Shown here in pieces: positions 3,661 to 24,289 of a DNA stretch of 64,000 bases. The stretch is from a virus. The translations under genes were made by a program, and so were the position numbers. Below the pieces are notes generated by a model. It was given only the letters and a program-made list of their open reading frames with translations. It was not told where the DNA came from and searched no databases. The stretch lies in the IMG/VR virus record IMGVR_UViG_3300044940_000144, positions 11,958-75,957 of that record, one strand, 5' to 3'. Position 1 is the first letter of the stretch, and every line of letters begins with the position of its first letter.

Positions 3661-3726
3661 CGAATGACCCCCGAGAAAGCCCCTGCCTTCAGGCATGGGA
3701 AGGAATCGGGGCTACACGCGTCGCTG
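3661..3726 (+). mobile_element. orphan IS200/IS605 left-end remnant
   Basis: 3664-3726 matches the reverse complement of 12139-12201 at 62/63 nt, and is preceded by TTTAT. Confidence 0.8.
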
Positions 3727-5184
3727 TTTGCGCTTTTTTTGCTCTCGCTTTTCGCGGGCGATCTTGTCTTTGAGGATCTGGATCATCTGCGAGTCGCCGG
3801 GATCGAACCCCTCGTGGACGGCGAGCCAGTCTTCTTCACTGTCAAGAGCAAAATAGACGCGATCTGAGATGACGTCGCTCCTTGACAAGCCTGCGTCGCG
3901 CAATGCCCGGGCGGCTGCCTTTTTGTCCGGCTGAGCCGCTATCCAGGCGCCGATCAGGCCGTGCCCGTAATCTAGGCCCCCGTATTCCTTTTTCACGCGC
4001 TTTACAAGGTCCTTCGCGCTCTCATCGCCGACCTTTATGACGCTGAGCTTCGGAGGGGCGTCGTCTCGGCCGACCACCTTCACGTGCAGCAAGCGCTGCC
4101 CGTATTCATCCACGTCGTTGGATATGACCTTCAGGCGCATATTGCGGCCGATCAGAAACTCGTCGAGGAGCCCCATGCCCATGTTGTCTGGGAGCATAGT
4201 GCTGATCTCGCCAGCGTGAGTTCCCCGTGGCACGTCGATCACCATGACGGCTTCTGCATCCGAATAGAGCGCGCGATCGTCCGGGTACGTCGAGATATAC
4301 GCCGGGTCGGTGTATACGGTGCCAGGCTTGAGCTTTTCCATCCACGACGTGTCGCCCTCGACCCTGCGGGTCACCACTTGGTCGTAGGAGGTCGGTTCCT
4401 CGGCCAAAAGGGCGTCGAGGCCTTCGATGGTCTTGAAGATGCTTTTTTCTTCGTGGGGGAGAACCTCACCACGTCGCAGCGCGGTGTTGATGCGGTACGA
4501 GCCGCCGATTCCCATATAGTCGAGGGCAGCTCGCTTTTGTTCTTCGTAGCTGATCGTTTGTGGGTAATCGTCGTCAAGCAGGTCGAACAGATCGCTGACG
4601 TCTTCGATGGCTTCCCGGTCACCCAAAAGCGAGGAGAGCTGGTCCTCCACCTTGCGCTTAGCACGTTTCAGTGAGCGGGATGCGTTTTGATTGCCGATCA
4701 GGTCGGCAAAGTCGATGCGCTCATCCCACTCATTTCTGATGTTGTCCAGGTCGATCGATGCCTTTGTAAGACGCTTACGCGACGCCGACGGGATCTTATC
4801 TTTTCGGATACGTCCTTTTTCGACGTCCTCATAAGTTTGTGCAACGGCGTCGGCGTACCGGCGGGCGGCGTCGGAGTAAAGATCCTGCAGGTCCTTGTCG
4901 CTGGCGGTGAGGATTGCGTTGTGGCGCCCGCGGGGTGAGACCTCATCGAGCGTCTTGCCGCGCAGACGGGGCGGACCCTCCCGGATAAGGCCGCCCTTTC
5001 CCAGGTAGACATGCGTGCCCTTGATGGTGCGCCAGCCGATGTCGCCGGGCTCGATGTGCCAGTTGATGCCACCGGGGATGTTGGCAAGGCGGCGGCGAGC
5101 CTCTAACAGCAGCGTGACGACGGCGGCCTTGTCTTGCAGGATGCTTCTGCGATTCCTGCCTTGGGTTGTGCGCACGCCGCGCAT
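3712..5184 (-). CDS. ADP-ribosyltransferase (VIP2/Alt-like), probably virion-associated
   Basis: Y..INTALR, VVTRRV (R), DPAYIST (S), VPRG...DEFLIGR (E); N-terminal WRTIKGTHVY..G..GP motif. Confidence 0.8.
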   Translation of the reverse strand: MRGVRTTQGRNRRSILQDKAAVVTLLLEARRRLANIPGGINWHIEPGDIGWRTIKGTHVYLGKGGLIREGPPRLRGKTLDEVSPRGRHNAILTASDKDLQDLYSDAARRYADAVAQTYEDVEKGRIRKDKIPSASRKRLTKASIDLDNIRNEWDERIDFADLIGNQNASRSLKRAKRKVEDQLSSLLGDREAIEDVSDLFDLLDDDYPQTISYEEQKRAALDYMGIGGSYRINTALRRGEVLPHEEKSIFKTIEGLDALLAEEPTSYDQVVTRRVEGDTSWMEKLKPGTVYTDPAYISTYPDDRALYSDAEAVMVIDVPRGTHAGEISTMLPDNMGMGLLDEFLIGRNMRLKVISNDVDEYGQRLLHVKVVGRDDAPPKLSVIKVGDESAKDLVKRVKKEYGGLDYGHGLIGAWIAAQPDKKAAARALRDAGLSRSDVISDRVYFALDSEEDWLAVHEGFDPGDSQMIQILKDKIAREKREQKKRKQRRV

Positions 5185-10593: not shown

Positions 10594-10944
10594 CTAAGCA
10601 TAGCACCTACCCATGCTCAGTTGACGCGCGCCGCCTCCGGCGATCTTGGACATTTGAATCTCGTTCAGCGACGCCACCGGGGCGCCCAGGACGACGTTGA
10701 CCAGGGGACGATACATGCGGCCGGTATCGAGATTGGCGATCACCAGTGGTAGCCAGCGGCGGTGCACCGACGCCGCCCCGTGCTCGACGAGCGTGGTCAG
10801 GCTTATATCGGAGATGACAGCGCACGCGCCGGACGGCGAGGAGAGCACCATCGCCCACATGGGCGGTGGGTCGTCGCTTGGGTTCGGCTTGACCCCGAAG
10901 TGGACGCATAGATCGCGCAGGCGATCACGTCTGCTCATCGTCAT
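10594..10944 (-). CDS. hypothetical protein
   Basis: AAAGGGGGAACC directly before ATG. Confidence 0.7.
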   Translation of the reverse strand: MTMSRRDRLRDLCVHFGVKPNPSDDPPPMWAMVLSSPSGACAVISDISLTTLVEHGAASVHRRWLPLVIANLDTGRMYRPLVNVVLGAPVASLNEIQMSKIAGGGARQLSMGRCYA

Positions 10945-12136
10945 CGGTTCCCCCTTTCCTTTTTGACATCCTCCCCACGGCTAAGGCCCGGGGATTCCCG
11001 CCTCGGCCTGCACCCTTTCCTCGAAAAGGAGAAGGATGTCTTACGGCGTCAGCAGCGGCAGGGTTGAGACCAGCCCTGGCCAGAATCGCTCTGGCAGCGT
11101 TTCTGTCGCGGTCGCTCACCAGCCCGCAGGCATGGCAGACGAACTCGCGCTTTGCCAGTTCCAACCGCTGCTTGGCTCTCGCTCCACAGTTGGAACAGGT
11201 CATAGTCGTGTAGGCGGGCGGCACCAGCACCACCTTCCGGCCCGCCCGCTCGGCGTGTTCGATGAGGATGCGTTTCGCGACCCCGATGGCGGCGTCCTGA
11301 GCCTTGCGGGCCATCCTGGTCTTGGCGAGGAACGACGGCTTGAAGTCCTCGACGGCGAGCGCCCCGTGGTCGCGCACGACGGACACAGCCCACTTGCGGG
11401 CGGTGTCCTGTCGCTGTCGGACGACTTTCTTGGCAACTTTGGCCGCGTCCTGTTTCGCCTTGCGGTAGCCGACGGACCCCGCCTTGCCCCGCTCTGGCTT
11501 ACGGCGAGCCATCCGTCGCTGGTACTTGGCGAGCGCCTTCGCCGCTTTGCGGGCGTACTGCGGATGCGGAAGGTCGTAGGCGGGGTCGGTGGTGGTGGCG
11601 ATTGTCTTGACGCCCCAGTCGATGCCGATGGCGGCATCCGAATCGGCCATCGGTTCGTCGTTCCGACGGACGACGAAACTGGCGTACCAATGGCCGAGAG
11701 AGTCACGGTACACCCGCACACTGGTCGGTTCGGACGGCAGGTCGCGGGACCACACGACAGGGATGCTCAGCCCACCGGCCAGACGCAGACGCCCATCCTT
11801 GAGCGAGAAGCCGCAGCGCGTGTAGTTGAGACTTGGCATGGTCCTGCGGGAGGACTTGAACTTGCGCCGCCCCTTGCCTTCGGCTCGCTTGGCGCGGAAG
11901 TTCCTCAACTCCTGCTGTTGCACGACGCTGCTACCGGCGCGGAGCCATTCGTGCTCGCGCCGCCATGCGGTCAGGTCACTGTCGCGGACCCATGTGCCCG
12001 TGGTCCGGAGCATGGCGACGGACTGGTTCCACAGCCAGCGGGTGCGGTGCCATTCGGAGATGAGCGCTCGCTCCGCCTTCGCACCGGGGCGCAGACGGTA
12101 CTGGTAGCGCAAGACCGTCCCCACGTATTGGATCAT
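10925..12136 (-). CDS. tnpB: RNA-guided endonuclease TnpB
   Basis: YQYRLRP N-terminus; RuvC GIDWG, AVEDF and DRDRNAA; CSNC/CHAC zinc finger. Alternative leaderless GTG start at 12124. The ORF reads through the right end. Confidence 0.92.
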   Translation of the reverse strand: MIQYVGTVLRYQYRLRPGAKAERALISEWHRTRWLWNQSVAMLRTTGTWVRDSDLTAWRREHEWLRAGSSVVQQQELRNFRAKRAEGKGRRKFKSSRRTMPSLNYTRCGFSLKDGRLRLAGGLSIPVVWSRDLPSEPTSVRVYRDSLGHWYASFVVRRNDEPMADSDAAIGIDWGVKTIATTTDPAYDLPHPQYARKAAKALAKYQRRMARRKPERGKAGSVGYRKAKQDAAKVAKKVVRQRQDTARKWAVSVVRDHGALAVEDFKPSFLAKTRMARKAQDAAIGVAKRILIEHAERAGRKVVLVPPAYTTMTCSNCGARAKQRLELAKREFVCHACGLVSDRDRNAARAILARAGLNPAAADAVRHPSPFRGKGAGRGGNPRALAVGRMSKRKGGTDDDEQT

Positions 12137-12204
12137 ACCAGCGACGCGTGTAGCCCCGATTCCTTCCCATGCCTGAAGGCAGGGGCTTCCTCGGGGGTCA
12201 TCTG
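10963..12204 (-). mobile_element. IS200/IS605-family element, tnpB only (IS1341-like)
   Basis: Left-end hairpin GAAGCCCCTGCCTTCAGGCATGGG after TTTAC; right end GAATCCCC..CCTTAGCCGTGGGGAGGATGTCAA; no tnpA. Confidence 0.85.
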
Positions 12205-12214
12205 GTAAAGCAAG

Positions 12215-12296
12215 TGGGGGCCGAGGGAGTCGAACCCTCATGCCTTGCGGCGCCGGATTTTGAGTCCGGTGCGTATGCCAGTTCCGCCAGACCCCC
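12215..12296 (-). tRNA. tRNA-Leu(CAA), CCA not encoded
   Basis: Acceptor GGGGGTC/GGCCCCC, anticodon arm CCGGA-CTCAAAA-TCCGG, long variable arm, GAGGG-TTCGACT-CCCTC. Confidence 0.95.
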
Positions 12297-13691: not shown

Positions 13692-13695
13692 AATC

Positions 13696-13749
13696 GCGTT
13701 TCGTCTCTGCCGTGAGACTCATCAGGCGGGCGGCATCAGCCCGCGACGC
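13696..13749 (-). ncRNA. hammerhead ribozyme type III (canonical)
   Basis: GCGUC^GCGGGC-ugaugcc-GCCCGC CUGAUGA GUCUC-acggca-GAGAC GAAA CGC; loops complementary (UGCC/GGCA); predicted cut 13745/13744. Confidence 0.93.
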
Positions 13750-13776
13750 CGGGGGCACCGAAGTGCCCCCCGCCTT

Positions 13777-14580: not shown

Positions 14581-14638
14581 GGCGTTTCGGCCCTCGATTA
14601 GGCCATCATTCAGGCCGGGGAGATACCCCGACGACGCC
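14581..14638 (-). ncRNA. hammerhead ribozyme type III with core insertions
   Basis: GGCGUC^GUCGGGG-uaucu-CCCCGGC CUGAAUGA U GGCC-uaaucgag-GGCC GAAA CGCC; predicted cut 14633/14632. Confidence 0.8.
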
Positions 14639-16893: not shown

Positions 16894-16961
16894 GGGCTAC
16901 CGCTTCCCGGACGTCGGTGACGTCCGGGATTCATGCCTGCCCAGGGCAATCGTCAGGCGGC
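16894..16961 (-). ncRNA. hammerhead-like type I element with a variant core
   Basis: GCCGC CUGACGA U UGCC-cugggca-GGCA U GAAU CCCGGACGUC..GACGUCCGGG AA GCGGU AGCCC; same scaffold as the three type I copies, with compensatory changes. Confidence 0.7.
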
Positions 16962-19229: not shown

Positions 19230-19259
19230 GGTCCCCCCTTGTTGTGGTGTACGGTAGGC

Positions 19260-19323
19260 GAGCTACCGCGACCTCCCTTTGCAGGGAGGTTTCGGCCTTG
19301 CTCAAGGGCCATCGTCAGGCGGC
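19260..19323 (-). ncRNA. hammerhead ribozyme type I with pseudoknot (B1)
   Basis: GCCGC CUGACGA U GGCC-cuugagcaa-GGCC GAAA CCUCCCU-gcaa-AGGGAGG UC^GCGGU AGCUC; predicted cut 19270/19269. Confidence 0.9.
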
Positions 19324-19560: not shown

Positions 19561-19584
19561 GATTCCCCCTTTGGTGCGTTCTCC

Positions 19585-19647
19585 CGCCTCCGTGCGACTC
19601 GTCAGGCCCCGTCCTGGGGCGACGCCCCCCTAGGGGGGCGTTTCGTT
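19585..19647 (-). ncRNA. hammerhead ribozyme type II (A1)
   Basis: AAC GAAA CGCCCCCC-ua-GGGGGGCG UC^GCCCC-aggac-GGGGC CUGACGA GUCGCACGGAGGCG; predicted cut 19621/19620. Confidence 0.88.
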
Positions 19648-19654
19648 CTTGTGT

Positions 19655-20056
19655 CTAGTAGTCCGCAGGCAGCATGGCCGTGTAGAAACCGGCCTCGTTC
19701 TGGACGAACCACACCCGCTCCGACCGGTCGGGCAGCCAGGACGTCAGCAGATAGCCGTCTTGCTTGTCCTCGGTCATCACCGCCTTATCGGCGGTGACTC
19801 TCAAGACGAGCGACGCAAGCGCACGGCGCACCTGCTCCGGCATGTCCACGCCGACCGTTTTGTCGATGCACTTATCGATCTTGCCCATCAGGTGGGACGT
19901 CGCCCTGGTGACGACGCTCCGCGCCACCGGCCACGGAGCGTTTCGCAGGAACACGCCCCAATCGGTGCAGTTGATGAGCACGCCCTCGTCAAGGGCTACC
20001 TCGTCCGAGTAGAACGAATAGATGACGGGTATGTCATCGAACGGGTCGTCGGACAT
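19655..20056 (-). CDS. DUF6573-like hypothetical protein
   Basis: VIYSFY...ALDEGVL N-terminus and TAMLPADY C-terminus. Confidence 0.65.
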   Translation of the reverse strand: MSDDPFDDIPVIYSFYSDEVALDEGVLINCTDWGVFLRNAPWPVARSVVTRATSHLMGKIDKCIDKTVGVDMPEQVRRALASLVLRVTADKAVMTEDKQDGYLLTSWLPDRSERVWFVQNEAGFYTAMLPADY

Positions 20057-20105
20057 TGTTTGTCCCCCCTTTTTGGTTGTGTGCGTTCCCATAATGCAGT
20101 AGCGC

Positions 20106-20168
20106 GAGCTACCGCGACCCCCCGCCAGGGGGGGTTTCGGCCTTGCTCAAGGGCCATCGTCAGGCGGC
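20106..20168 (-). ncRNA. hammerhead ribozyme type I with pseudoknot (B2)
   Basis: Same core as B1 with a different stem III; predicted cut 20116/20115. Confidence 0.9.
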
Positions 20169-20172
20169 GTCG

Positions 20173-20442
20173 CTAAGACTCGTCCGATTGCCAGTACTCC
20201 CCGGAGTTGTGCTGGAAGACCCCCTCGGAGGTGTCAGGCACATACTCGCTCGGGTCCATCACCACGCGGGCCAGGACCTTGAAATCGCCGGAGATGTACC
20301 CGCGCTCCCGGGCCTTGCGAAGGCCCTTGAGCAGGTGCTCCACGGCGGCCTTGCCGTAGCCGTTGTGGACGTCGAAACCGTCGGCGTAGTCGCCGACGCG
20401 CTCGATGGTGACCGAGTAGCTGTACACGGTGTCGTCGCTCAC
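20173..20442 (-). CDS. hypothetical protein, paralog of 20547-20804
   Basis: GTG start after AAGGGGGGACC; SDDTVY...ARERGYISGD. Confidence 0.8.
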   Translation of the reverse strand: MSDDTVYSYSVTIERVGDYADGFDVHNGYGKAAVEHLLKGLRKARERGYISGDFKVLARVVMDPSEYVPDTSEGVFQHNSGEYWQSDES

Positions 20443-20475
20443 CCTTGGTCCCCCCTTGTGTGGTTTTTCGCTTTT

Positions 20476-20539
20476 CGCCTCCGTGCGACTCGTCAGGCCC
20501 CGTCCTGGGGCGACGCCCCCCCTAGGGAGGCGTTTCGTT
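20476..20539 (-). ncRNA. hammerhead ribozyme type II (A2)
   Basis: Same architecture as A1; predicted cut 20512/20511. Confidence 0.88.
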
Positions 20540-20546
20540 TCGCGGG

Positions 20547-20804
20547 CTACATCTTCATCCACCGGTAGCTGTCCTCGAACTGGCCCATCGCGGGCTCCAG
20601 GTAGTCGTCCGGGTCGGTGTACACCGCGCGGGACCGGACCCGGATGTCGCCAACGATGTAGCCACGGTCGCGGGCCTCTTGGAACTCCCGGAGGAGCTGC
20701 TCGGCCGCGCCCTTGGCAGTGCCGTCGTGGTGCTCGCGACCGTCCTGATCATCGCCGACCCGCACGACGTGCAGCAGGTAGCGGTAGACAGTGTCGTCGC
20801 TCAC
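20547..20804 (-). CDS. hypothetical protein, paralog of 20173-20442
   Basis: SDDTVY...ARDRGYIVGD. Confidence 0.8.
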   Translation of the reverse strand: MSDDTVYRYLLHVVRVGDDQDGREHHDGTAKGAAEQLLREFQEARDRGYIVGDIRVRSRAVYTDPDDYLEPAMGQFEDSYRWMKM

Positions 20805-20840
20805 GTTGGTTCCCCCTTCGTAGTGATGATGCAGTAGCGC

Positions 20841-20903
20841 GAGCTACCGCGACCCCCCGCCAGGGGGGGTTTCGGCCTTGCTCAAGGGCCATCGTCAGGC
20901 GGC
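20841..20903 (-). ncRNA. hammerhead ribozyme type I with pseudoknot (B3)
   Basis: Essentially identical to B2; predicted cut 20851/20850. Confidence 0.9.
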
Positions 20904-20905
20904 TT

Positions 20906-21364
20906 TTAGCGTCCGGAGCGCGCTCGGCGCCGATCCTCGTACTCGTCCACGGGGTGGCGAACGATGCGGCGCTCGTCGTCCAGGTCGTAGAGGCTGACCG
21001 GCGAGCACGCCGGGTGCCAGGTCTCGCCACCGCCGTAGGCGATGGTGTGGCCACTGGCGAACTGCTTACCGCAGGAGCGGCAGTGGCCGGGGTACCTCGC
21101 CGTTATCAGCTTGACCGGGCGGACCACGTTCTGGTCGGCCTCGCCAGCGGCGCGCACGAGCTCGCGCATCGCGGCCTCCAGGGCGGCGATGTGGCGCTTG
21201 TGCGAGGCAATCTCCTCAGCCTGACGCTCAATGACGTCGGCCATGTTGAAGATCACGTCGTCGAGCGACCTTACCTTCGCATCGACGTTGGCGAGCGCGC
21301 AGTCGACGGTGTCGAGCTTCTCAGCGAGCGACGCGACCGTCGGACGCACAACAGTAGTACCCAT
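20906..21364 (-). CDS. coiled-coil plus zinc-finger protein
   Basis: Heptad-rich N-terminus; ARYPGHCRSCG...WHPAC. Confidence 0.8.
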   Translation of the reverse strand: MGTTVVRPTVASLAEKLDTVDCALANVDAKVRSLDDVIFNMADVIERQAEEIASHKRHIAALEAAMRELVRAAGEADQNVVRPVKLITARYPGHCRSCGKQFASGHTIAYGGGETWHPACSPVSLYDLDDERRIVRHPVDEYEDRRRARSGR

Positions 21365-21391
21365 GGTTCCCCCTTGTGTGTTCCCGCTTCC

Positions 21392-21455
21392 CGCCTCCGT
21401 GCGACTCGTCAGGCCCCATCCTGGGGCGACGCCCCCAATAGAGGGGCGTTTCGTT
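21392..21455 (-). ncRNA. hammerhead ribozyme type II (A3)
   Basis: Core intact, stems I and III vary; predicted cut 21428/21427. Confidence 0.88.
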
Positions 21456-21461
21456 CGCGGG

Positions 21462-21695
21462 CTAGACGATTTTGGCGTCGTCCGGCGTGCGGCGGCGAAC
21501 CCAGACGTCGAACTGCTCGACTCCTGAGCAGTTACGGGCCTTCAGGCTGAAGCCGCTAGATGTGCCATCGCCGTAGTGAATCTTCGATAGCACGCGGCCG
21601 TCGGAGCACAGGACATAGGTCGTACTGACCCCGGATCCGTACTCGACCCGCCTACGGGCGACCTCAGTCGCGCCGCGAGCACTGATCTTCGCCAT
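21462..21695 (-). CDS. hypothetical protein
   Basis: Shared start motif; 77 aa. Confidence 0.8.
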   Translation of the reverse strand: MAKISARGATEVARRRVEYGSGVSTTYVLCSDGRVLSKIHYGDGTSSGFSLKARNCSGVEQFDVWVRRRTPDDAKIV

Positions 21696-21726
21696 CGTTC
21701 CCCCCTTGTAGTGCGTTCCCCATCAT

Positions 21727-21794
21727 CGCCTTCCGTGCGACTCATCAGGCCCCAATCCATAGGGCGACGCTCCCCTGACGGGGAGCGTTTCGTT
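21727..21794 (-). ncRNA. hammerhead ribozyme type II (A4)
   Basis: CUGAUGA core; stem III CGCUCCCC-guca-GGGGAGCG (covarying); predicted cut 21766/21765. Confidence 0.88.
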
Positions 21795-21800
21795 TAGGGA

Positions 21801-22679
21801 CTACTGACGCCGGAGCGTCTTGCGCGGCCCGCGCTTGGTCTGGACGACCTCGGGCTCGGCCTCGGCCTTCGCCTCCGGCTCGGCCTTCGCCTCCGGCTCG
21901 GTCCGGGCCCCGACGGGCTTGTTCTTGCCGTTGACCCCGACGGACACCTTGAGAGTGCCGGTGGGGTTCTCCGTCGCCGGAGCCTCGCTGACGGCCTCGG
22001 CCTTGTCCGCCGCGTGCTTCTCAGCGAACCCATCGATGACCTTCTGCAGGGCGGACTTCTCCTTGTCCAGCTCGCGAAGCTGGGACTGGTAGTCGTTCGC
22101 CTGCTGCTCGGTCTTCATGTGCTCGATGAGCGTTGACATCGCCGAGAACACGAAGATCACGTCGGACGACAGGCCGGGCATGACCCGCTCGACCGCCTGC
22201 GCGACGGCGTTGCGGAAGGGGTCGGTGACCTTCCGACGGCCGACCATGACGTCGACCTCGTACATGGCGTAGGCCATCACCATCATCCCGAACGCGAAGG
22301 CGTCGCGCGCCTTCGAGACGTGGGCGATCTTCTCCGACGCCGTCATCCGCGTCGGCCGCTGGAAGGCGCTCCCGCCGACGTGCTGGGTCAGGATCTCGAC
22401 CGCCGCCTTGAACTGGGTCGTGAGAATCTCCCGGTCCAGCTTCGGCATGTCGAGGATCGACCCGTCTTTGAACGGGTTCGCGGCCTCCTCGGCGATCGTC
22501 GCCACCACGTCGAGGAACTCGGCGAACTGGGCCGAGTTTTCGGTCGTGGTGTGCTCCGCGCCGCCGAAGACGTGCTCAATCACGTCGTCCTTGGTCATCT
22601 TGCCGATCGCGTCGAGAAGGTCGCCCTCCTCGGTGGGGATCAGGTCGACCTTGCCGGGACGCTTGTAGGACGTGCTCAT
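21801..22679 (-). CDS. hypothetical protein, first gene of the early operon
   Basis: 292 aa with a coiled coil and EAKAEP repeats; shared start motif. Confidence 0.85.
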   Translation of the reverse strand: MSTSYKRPGKVDLIPTEEGDLLDAIGKMTKDDVIEHVFGGAEHTTTENSAQFAEFLDVVATIAEEAANPFKDGSILDMPKLDREILTTQFKAAVEILTQHVGGSAFQRPTRMTASEKIAHVSKARDAFAFGMMVMAYAMYEVDVMVGRRKVTDPFRNAVAQAVERVMPGLSSDVIFVFSAMSTLIEHMKTEQQANDYQSQLRELDKEKSALQKVIDGFAEKHAADKAEAVSEAPATENPTGTLKVSVGVNGKNKPVGARTEPEAKAEPEAKAEAEPEVVQTKRGPRKTLRRQ

Positions 22680-22706
22680 GGGGTTCCCCCTTTTGGGTGT
22701 GTGTTT

Positions 22707-22772
22707 TGCCTCCGTGCGACTCGTCAGGCCCCGTCATAGGGCAACACCCCCCCGGCGGGGGGGTGTTTCGTT
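22707..22772 (-). ncRNA. hammerhead ribozyme type II (A5), GUU cleavage triplet
   Basis: GAAA CACCCCCCC..GGGGGGGUG UU^GCCC..GGGC CUGACGA G; predicted cut 22743/22742. Confidence 0.85.
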
Positions 22773-23156
22773 TGTGGACCGCCCCGAAGGACGTCCACAC
22801 ACACACACACACATAAAGGGTAGGGAACCGATATTTATCGCCTCACTGCACCCAATCCCGTCCGGGGACGGGCAGCGTGGCACGGACAGGGTCCAGTATG
22901 TACGCTGGAACCGAGTGTCGCCAGGGCAGGGGGTCCACAGGACTAACGCACGCGCACGCGTGCGTGACCCTGCATGCTGAGCCCCTCGCGAACGCGCGTC
23001 GCACGCGACGCGCGCGCCAACTTCGAGCCCTCCCTGACCTGCGACCGCCGCGCATAAGCACTCCGTGCGACGCGAGTCCAACTCGCCGCCCGCGCGACCC
23101 CGACGTTCGTGCCCGCGCGACCGCCGCAGCAACCGCGCGTCCGAAATGACACTTCC

Positions 23157-23183
23157 ATGCTAGCACCCCCCATCATGCAATGT

Positions 23184-23186
<3 letters not shown>
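23157..23186 (-). promoter_or_regulatory. strong sigma70-type promoter TTGACA-N18-(TG-c)TAGCAT
   Basis: Perfect -35 at 23181-23186; -10 at 23157-23162. Confidence 0.8.
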
Positions 23187-23599
<413 letters not shown>

Positions 23600-23614
23600 T
23601 TGCCGCCTGAGTGC

Positions 23615-23722
23615 CGGCTACCCCCCCCCGGGGGGGCCGCTACCGCCCCCCGGGGGGGCCGCTACCGCCCCCCGGGGGGGCTACCGCCACGAAGCCCCCC
23701 GCCGGGGAACCGGCGGCTACCG
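23615..23722. repeat. GCTACC repeats with C6-9/G7 palindromes
   Basis: GCTACC(G)CCCCCCGGGGGGG repeated about three times, plus further GCTACC copies. Confidence 0.85.
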
Positions 23723-24289
23723 CATGGGTGCCACCGAGCCCGTCCCGGTCTCCCAGGACAGCAAAAACACCTGGCAGTCGACCACGTCCACCGTGCGCGC
23801 GGACACGATGACGCGGGAGATTTCACGGCGCTTGATCCAACGCTTGGTGACGCTCATGCGGACGATCTGGACGTCGTCCTTCCAGGCGTGCTGATTGAGC
23901 GCGTCCATGACGAGCTTGGCGGCGTTGTCCAAGTCGGGCTTGGTCGCGTACGGATGAGGGAAGCGCTTACCGGACGCCGACAGCGCCCCGGACGACAGCG
24001 TATGCGACCCCGGACGCCGCAGGCAGACAGTGATATCGACCTCGATCGGCTTGTCCTGCCCCAAAAAACACGCCCCGGCGCGTCTCCAAGCCGTCTGGAT
24101 CATCCGTTCGGCGATCTTGGTCCGGTCGCTGGTGCGCGTGTACACGCGGCCGCTGCTGCTAATGCTGAACCGCGGCCGCTCCTTGGTCGGGGCGTAGCGG
24201 TTCGAGTAAGGGTCCTTGGTACCCGCGTTCAGCCCGCCTGGGCCGTGAATGGGGATATCGAACTGGAAGTCACTGACGAGTCTGGTCAT
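23717..24289 (-). CDS. rusA: RusA-family Holliday junction resolvase
   Basis: KERPRF, KPDLDNAAKLVMDALN, W.DD.QI. Confidence 0.9.
   Translation of the reverse strand: MTRLVSDFQFDIPIHGPGGLNAGTKDPYSNRYAPTKERPRFSISSSGRVYTRTSDRTKIAERMIQTAWRRAGACFLGQDKPIEVDITVCLRRPGSHTLSSGALSASGKRFPHPYATKPDLDNAAKLVMDALNQHAWKDDVQIVRMSVTKRWIKRREISRVIVSARTVDVVDCQVFLLSWETGTGSVAPMR

Follow-up and report, generated by a model that had tools for sequence, protein, structure and literature searches.

Five type II hammerhead ribozymes with an invariant 3' tail that may form a hairpin, in a probable early operon of a phage genome

The DNA analyzed here, referred to as the window, is a stretch of 64,000 nucleotides (nt) corresponding to positions 11,958 to 75,957 of the IMG/VR virus record IMGVR_UViG_3300044940_000144, and all coordinates are those of this stretch. 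The source record of 75,957 bp is a single-contig virus that encodes a portal protein, a Mu Gp48-like baseplate protein, and further tailed-phage genes. Between positions 19585 and 22772, the minus strand carries five copies of a type II hammerhead ribozyme, each of which ends in a short, almost invariant 3' tail that is the subject of this study. An initial annotation had reported five copies in this interval, and a repeat scan together with a parse of all copies found them there on the minus strand, as listed below with their scores against the Rfam type II model RF02276.

19585 to 19647, minus strand: type II hammerhead copy 1, spanning A11.3 through the tail hairpin; predicted cut 19621 (C17)/19620; tail hairpin 19585-19596; 31.4 bits
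20476 to 20539, minus strand: type II hammerhead copy 2; predicted cut 20512/20511; tail hairpin 20476-20487; 28.6 bits
21392 to 21455, minus strand: type II hammerhead copy 3; predicted cut 21428/21427; tail hairpin 21392-21403; loop I AGGAU; 33.0 bits
21727 to 21794, minus strand: type II hammerhead copy 4; predicted cut 21766/21765; tail hairpin 21727-21739; 32.2 bits
22707 to 22772, minus strand: type II hammerhead copy 5; predicted cut 22743/22742; 26.5 bits

The genes between these copies follow one another on the minus strand. At the 5' end, a promoter (23186-23157) and a leader of approximately 375 nt precede copy 5 and a gene of 292 amino acids (aa), which are followed by copy 4, a 77-aa gene, copy 3, a 152-aa gene, a type I hammerhead copy, an 85-aa gene, copy 2, an 89-aa gene, another type I copy, a 133-aa gene, copy 1, a 72-aa gene, a further type I copy, the gene for an SNF2 helicase (755 aa), and a variant type I copy (16894-16961). 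Two type III hammerhead copies lie further downstream on the same strand. Type I and type II hammerheads taken together occupy nine consecutive gene junctions; each hammerhead begins a few bases past a stop codon, and a G-rich ribosome site and a start codon come after it. Copy 5 is the first in the transcript and would release the leader. Multiple hammerheads often flank prophage genes (Perreault et al. 2011, PMC3088659).

The layout of each unit is AAC-GAAA-stem III hairpin-U-H17-stem I hairpin-CUGAYGA-GU-CGCACGGA(A)GGC(G/A). In a regular-expression parse, GAAA, the cleavage site UH, and CUGANGA lie on one strand in that order in 5/5 copies; the G-S-C order of elements defines type II hammerheads (PMC10085705). 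The core (C3 U4 G5 A6 N7 G8 A9, G12 A13 A14, A15.1-U16.1, H17, and G10.1-C11.1) is complete in every copy, with N7 being C in four copies and U in one (copy 4) and H17 being C in four copies and U in one (copy 5, in which the pair 15.3-16.3 is A-U). According to RNAalifold, applied to the five copies, stem III has 8 to 9 bp, two of which change in a fully compensatory way (G-C to A-U and C-G to U-A), in addition to wobble changes, and stem I has 5 bp with C-G/U-G changes. When RF02276 was searched in E-value mode with a search space of 4.5 kb, all five copies aligned to model positions 1-66 of 66 with 26.5-33.0 bits (E = 5e-4 to 0.03); a gathering-mode Rfam scan of the window, for which the gathering score of this model is 37 bits, reported no hammerhead. 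Judged by their sequence, the five copies are genuine, selected type II hammerheads and not chance matches, because the core is complete, the alignment to RF02276 runs from end to end, and the stems show compensatory changes.

Only two pairs of stem II, C11.1-G10.1 and A11.2-U10.2 (AC/GU), are possible in 5/5 copies, as the initial annotation had noted. C10.3 stands opposite A11.3, the 5' flanks vary among the copies, and there is no consistent extension of the stem. The same annotation had counted the near absence of stem II toward a possibly undescribed architecture, and as a novelty this does not stand: a stem II of two bp is common in type II hammerheads, an active example with a single pair has been characterized (Perreault et al. 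2011, PMC3088659), and the RF02276 model itself contains a stem II of two pairs and, after it, 8 nt of unpaired tail. The short stem II seen here is ordinary, not new.

The tail reads GUCGCACGGA(A)GGC(G/A), and AAC and GUCGCACGGA are identical in all five copies; the tails differ only in one additional loop A in copy 4 and in GCA in place of GCG at the end of copy 5. Invariant columns account for 3/3 of the 5' arm of the tail stem and 5/6 of the tail loop, as against 0/5 of loop III, 1/7 of loop I, and 0/7 of the flanks. The tail is as invariant as the catalytic core while loops and flanks vary, and it is therefore under selection and not merely of recent origin. Loop I is AGGAC in copies 1 and 2, AGGAU in copy 3, the longer UAUGGAUU in copy 4, and UAUGAC in copy 5, and GA-pyrimidine is common to all. 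In four copies, loop I and the tail have no contiguous complement longer than 2 bp; copy 4 alone has one of 4 bp, which the others do not share. Thus, the earlier claims of an invariant AAC and tail, of a G(G)A-type sequence kept in loop I (5/5 copies), and of no evident Watson-Crick pseudoknot (no complement of at least 4 bp in 4/5 copies) all agree with the present parse.

The tail can fold as CGC-ACGGAG-GCG, a hairpin of 3 to 4 bp that would directly abut the 2-bp stem II. RNAalifold predicts this hairpin from the five-copy alignment, and the fourth pair, U10.2-purine, is U-A in three copies and U-G in two. The hairpin alone has a folding energy of -3.6 to -4.5 kcal/mol in copies 1-4, and it adds about -3.3 kcal/mol to the hammerhead fold. 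For comparison, we sampled 58 unique IMG/VR type II hammerheads with the same AAC...GU closure and parsed them with the same script. The tails of the sampled hammerheads extend stem II (GUUC/GAAC) or form pseudoknots of 4-7 bp with loop I, and a GC hairpin abutting a 2-bp stem II was found in 0/58. A literature search returned no description of a hairpin-forming type II tail among the papers covered.

A comparator for the tail hairpin is the stem II of one of the two type III hammerheads of this genome.

13693 to 13752, minus strand: type III hammerhead (RF00008, 36.1 bits) with the closed stem II GUCUC-ACGGCA-GAGAC

This stem II has five pairs and a hexaloop that begins with ACGG at the same distance from the core as the tail loop. 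The type II tail matches it in register at 10/14 positions, including CACGG, and 1.9% of random 11-mers from the window match the type III stem II equally well over positions 4-14. With six other hammerheads of the genome open to the same comparison, the similarity of the tail to the type III stem II is suggestive, not proven. As separate observations on the type III copies, the loop II sequence GGCA at 13693-13752 is complementary to the loop I sequence UGCC; the second copy, at 14581-14638 on the minus strand, carries CUGAAUGA, which is one base longer than the CUGANGA consensus; and each of the two is preceded by a GC hairpin of 8-9 bp that abuts a short stem III (4-5 bp).

The type I hammerheads of the operon offer a second comparison within the genome.

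19246 to 19323, minus strand: type I hammerhead
20091 to 20168, minus strand: type I hammerhead, same family
20826 to 20903, minus strand: type I hammerhead, same family
16894 to 16961, minus strand: variant type I-like hammerhead directly past the helicase stop codon, with the core UGAAU...AA and not GAAA...UH

The three type I copies have an extra U between A9 and G10.1 and an open stem I of 4-5 bp (GCCGC/GCGG), and GCUC within their 3' tail is complementary to GAGC in loop II, giving a pseudoknot. None of the three was reported by Rfam, even at E-values of up to 10. In the variant copy, GGGC in loop II and GCCC in the tail replace GAGC/GCUC, a change that is compensatory for the loop II/tail pseudoknot. 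Since the type I copies carry this pseudoknot, the phage uses the standard solution in type I and something else in type II.

In the model that we favor, each ribozyme would fold as the RNA is made and would cut after C17 (U17 in copy 5). Cutting would leave the upstream message with the GC-rich stem III hairpin and a 2',3'-cyclic phosphate at its 3' end; the downstream message would open with the stem I hairpin, carrying a 5'-OH, at a distance of 55-69 nt from its start codon; and the polycistronic early transcript would be processed into end-protected single-gene messages. Stem II would be closed by G10.1-C11.1 and U10.2-A11.2 only, and the CGC-ACGGAG-GCG hairpin would stack coaxially on both pairs. 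The product would be a nicked but continuous helix of five levels with a hexaloop cap, of the size of an ordinary closed stem-loop II, and the RNA chain would enter and leave via the side of helix II. Such a cap would keep stems I and II parallel, replacing the loop I/tail pseudoknot of most type II hammerheads. The tail would thus be a retained stem-loop II whose 3' strand ends after three pairs; the last two pairs would come from the AC before GAAA, so that the chain would pass through a nick in the side of helix II. Because a purine invariably comes after GCG, a shift of the nick by one pair is conceivable. We put the probability that the hairpin-forming, pseudoknot-free, invariant tail represents a new type II variant with a nicked, capped helix II at about 0.5. 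It is more doubtful that the arrangement amounts to a distinct layout, in which all three helices would be capped by hairpins, the nick would lie between 11.2 and 11.3, the module would be closed and independent of the flanking mRNA, and a pseudoknot would be unneeded.

Compared with the known type II hammerheads (RF02276, PMC3088659), the order of elements is the same, as are the siting between small phage genes and the occurrence of several copies per cluster. In the majority of the known type II hammerheads, albeit not universally, the tail forms a pseudoknot of at least 4 bp with loop I, whereas here loop I has 5-8 nt and the tail can fold on itself. With respect to the type III and type I hammerheads of sTRSV, CChMVd, and Schistosoma (PMC2632901), the stacked form would present a five-level helix II whose hexaloop lies opposite a small-looped stem I of 5 bp; a five-level helix II that faces a short stem I is the usual geometry for loop-loop stabilization in types I and III, and the tail loop shares ACGG with the genome's own type III copy at 13693-13752. 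Unlike the closed stem-loop II of types I and III, however, the 3' strand of helix II would be broken after three pairs, with both chain ends exiting there, and the loops are without the U (5' end of loop 1) and the A (3' end of loop 2) that are conserved in natural types I and III (PMC2632901). The non-circular permutations SGC, GCS, and CSG (NAR 2023, PMC10085705) are likewise natural rearrangements of strand connection outside the core, but they alter the order of elements and create core pseudoknots, while the present copies keep the standard type II order and differ only in the exit from helix II.

Several observations weigh against a nicked, capped helix II. All five copies score under the RF02276 gathering cut-off of 37 bits. 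Full alignment to an existing Rfam type II model, which the initial annotation had taken as a sign against a new architecture, is found in form in all copies (1-66 of 66), but at these subthreshold scores. The arms of the tail hairpin show no covariation, because the tail never varies, and in copy 5 the closing C-G becomes C-A, which leaves two good pairs and -0.9 kcal/mol. A hairpin of 3-4 bp is not unlikely to arise by chance beside a GC-rich position. In the known loop 1/loop 2 motif, a U at the 5' end of loop 1 pairs with an A at the 3' end of loop 2, and loop 1 has an extrahelical pyrimidine on its 3' side (Dufour et al. 2009, PMC2632901); here, the 3' pyrimidine of loop I is present, but loop I starts with A in copies 1-3 and the tail loop ends with G in all copies, so that the 5'-U/3'-A part of the motif is missing. 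Loop I and the tail loop offer no Watson-Crick kissing in the five copies, and docking of the tail hairpin on loop I is purely conjectural. The likeness to the type III stem II corresponds to about p = 0.1 after correction for six other comparable hammerheads. Of the architecture proposed in the initial annotation, what stands is a pseudoknot-free tail whose hairpin abuts the 2-bp stem; its placement in lieu of stem II is qualified by arms without covariation and by the weak copy 5, and its novelty by the fact that a short stem II has been described (PMC3088659) and that RF02276 aligns end to end.

In the search for relatives that might show covariation, fixed patterns were scanned against IMG/VR, JGI metagenomes, and GTDB genomes and BLAST was run on phage records; neither this tail nor an analogue bearing a hairpin turned up in a second genome. 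Neither the region nor a single copy gave a relevant BLAST match among 50,697 phage records, and the exact tail pattern gave three chance matches in IMG/VR, none of them a hammerhead. The pattern AACGAAAC..GTH..CTGANGAGTNNNACGG had 0 matches in IMG/VR, 22 in JGI metagenomes, and 18 in GTDB genomes; the matches inspected in JGI and GTDB were due to chance or failed the stem checks, and most of those in GTDB were a repeated non-hammerhead sequence of Polynucleobacter, of which one representative was read. Another pattern, with the ending GAGTCGC, found one real hammerhead, which has an ordinary 4-bp stem II, and one with the ending GAGT(C/G) found only four, 0/4 with a tail hairpin. The SNF2 helicase has a 70% relative on a 1.9-kb contig in the protein database and 41-43% relatives on longer contigs, and at the best IMG/VR loci of its relatives (33% identical) no hammerhead was found by Rfam or by our own model R1. 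As no relatives were found in these scans, nothing outside this genome supports the fold, which is a further point to be set against it.

The strongest of the alternatives arises from a second occurrence of the tail sequence in the leader of the operon.

23157 to 23186, minus strand: sigma-70-like promoter (TTGACA, 18-nt spacer, TG-TAGCAT; 10/12 matches)
23061 to 23071, minus strand: isolated GUCGCACGGAG in the leader; 13/14 positions match the hammerhead copies (CGnGUCGCACGGAG)

One promoter of this kind was found versus 0.1 expected in shuffles. The operon transcript probably starts near 23150, and the hammerhead-bearing minus-strand genes probably constitute an early phage operon transcribed from this promoter. 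The lone recurrence of the 11-mer in the leader had been pointed out in the initial annotation, and one further copy does occur there on the same strand. It lies approximately 80 nt past the predicted transcription start, downstream of a strong sigma-70-like promoter, and so is transcribed. It has neither a hammerhead core nor the 3' arm of the tail hairpin; the latter points to a sequence-specific and not a structural role and thus also counts against the capped helix. That the leader 11-mer is a decayed sixth hammerhead was considered and rejected, as the similarity ends at 14 nt and is no better than in shuffles. The site can form another small hairpin (GCAC-GGA-GUGC).

The copies could accordingly be active type II hammerheads whose tail is a sequence-specific 5' untranslated region (UTR) site, bound for example by a phage or host RNA-binding protein or used for ribosome stand-by, that controls the stability or translation of the message. 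Besides the transcribed leader copy of the 11-mer (13/14 with its 5' neighbors), which has neither hammerhead nor 3' hairpin arm, the perfect GGAGG in the tail of 4/5 copies and the hairpin stem without covariation are consistent with such a site. The motif, however, follows type II ribozymes only, the genes behind the type I copies of the same operon being devoid of it, and it begins at G10.1, within the ribozyme. GGAGG lies 26-40 nt before the start codon (GGAAGG, 31-48 nt, in copy 4), each gene has its own G-rich ribosome site, and copy 4 disrupts GGAGG to GGAAGG. We therefore regard a sequence-specific UTR site as unlikely, although it is the main competitor of the capped helix.

It is improbable that the tail is a switch, with GGAGGCG pairing either to CGCCYCC in the 5' strand of stem III or to YGCC, where the cleavage site and the beginning of stem I lie, and that cutting is delayed or regulated by the resulting inactive fold. 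In copy 2, the minimum-free-energy fold does contain a 7-bp helix between the tail and the stem III 5' strand, and in copy 5 the G-to-A change in the tail (22707) coincides with the change of C17 to U17 (22743), which preserves the GGCR/YGCC complementarity; the latter, though, is only one coincident change and could be due to chance. The complementarity is imperfect in copies 1, 3, and 4, is absent toward stem III in copy 5, and arises largely from runs of G facing runs of C. Moreover, stem III is a GC hairpin of 8-9 bp that is transcribed approximately 40 nt ahead of the tail, so that invasion by the tail is unlikely. The lowest-energy folds keep stems III and I in copies 1 and 4 and stem III with most of stem I in copy 3, while in copy 5 stem I is partly lost and copy 2 takes the alternative fold.

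Equally poor is the prospect that the tail is a functionless leftover of a type III-like stem-loop II, homogenized by recombination, behind ribozymes with a bare 2-bp stem II that are minimal or barely working. The resemblance of the tail to the type III stem-loop II would suit this origin, sequence exchange could occur between copies spread over 3.2 kb, and slow hammerhead variants are known in phages (PMC3088659). Nevertheless, loop I, stem III, loop III, and the 3' flank around the tail have diverged, and conversion would therefore be confined to a patch of 21 nt. Loss of the tertiary contact costs hammerheads with a stem II of 1-2 bp more than 100-fold in activity (PMC3088659), and at the Mg2+ levels of the cell a ribozyme with nothing but a bare 2-bp stem II would thus perform poorly. 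Self-masking of the ribozyme by pairing of its tail with CUGANGA or GAAA is not supported: reading the tail and the downstream sequence by eye, with no dedicated scan, revealed no such complement.

If the more doubtful layout with three capped helices holds, these copies would belong to a fourth connectivity class of natural hammerheads, in addition to types I, II, and III, and current Rfam models would miss such a class or score it too low. If the tail hairpin does cap helix II, the cap would be a third natural way of joining stems I and II, besides loop-loop contacts and pseudoknots, and hammerhead connectivity would not be restricted to openings at a loop. It would also be useful for the design of compact, context-insulated self-cleaving modules for polycistronic expression. 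Should the tail instead bind a factor, it would provide a handle on how phage hammerheads are regulated. Ribozyme searches are affected as well, because the five type II copies score under the Rfam cut-off and Rfam misses the operon's type I copies entirely.

Some further features were observed around the ribozymes. The A-rich GRRAAC-RCAC stretch past the tail was considered as a decayed second GAAAC element; this idea is weakened because the same GGGAACGCAC motif is also present behind a type I copy, so that it resembles a shared 5' UTR element. A 5' UTR motif, GGGAAC(G/A)CAC...AAGGGGGG(A)AC, lies ahead of several start codons (e.g., 19563-19584, 20062-20090, and 21698-21726); it is found behind both type I and type II ribozymes and resembles a common translation-initiation region. 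The adjacent small genes at 20547-20804 and 20173-20442 on the minus strand encode identical first residues (GTG AGC GAC GAC AC), one with a type I and the other with a type II ribozyme ahead of it, and they resemble paralogous cassettes. Directly upstream of the early promoter, approximately 400 bp (23186-23600) consist of imperfect tandem repeats of the GCCA/GCGA tetranucleotide type; the end of the leader holds a (CA)n run (22797-22815), and no convincing gene was seen across the whole of 22775-24250.

Elsewhere in the window, a TnpB-like open reading frame (10925-12241, minus strand) contains OrfB_IS605 and Cas12f1-like TNB domains, and it adjoins a tRNA-like match with a long variable region (12215-12296, minus strand, 53.6 bits). 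An EGFOA RNA (RF02955) is located at 1074-1225 on the minus strand with 47.5 bits. Beside the portal gene, a 490-aa protein (3712-5184, minus strand) has an ADP-ribosyltransferase exoenzyme domain (PF03496, E = 8e-9).

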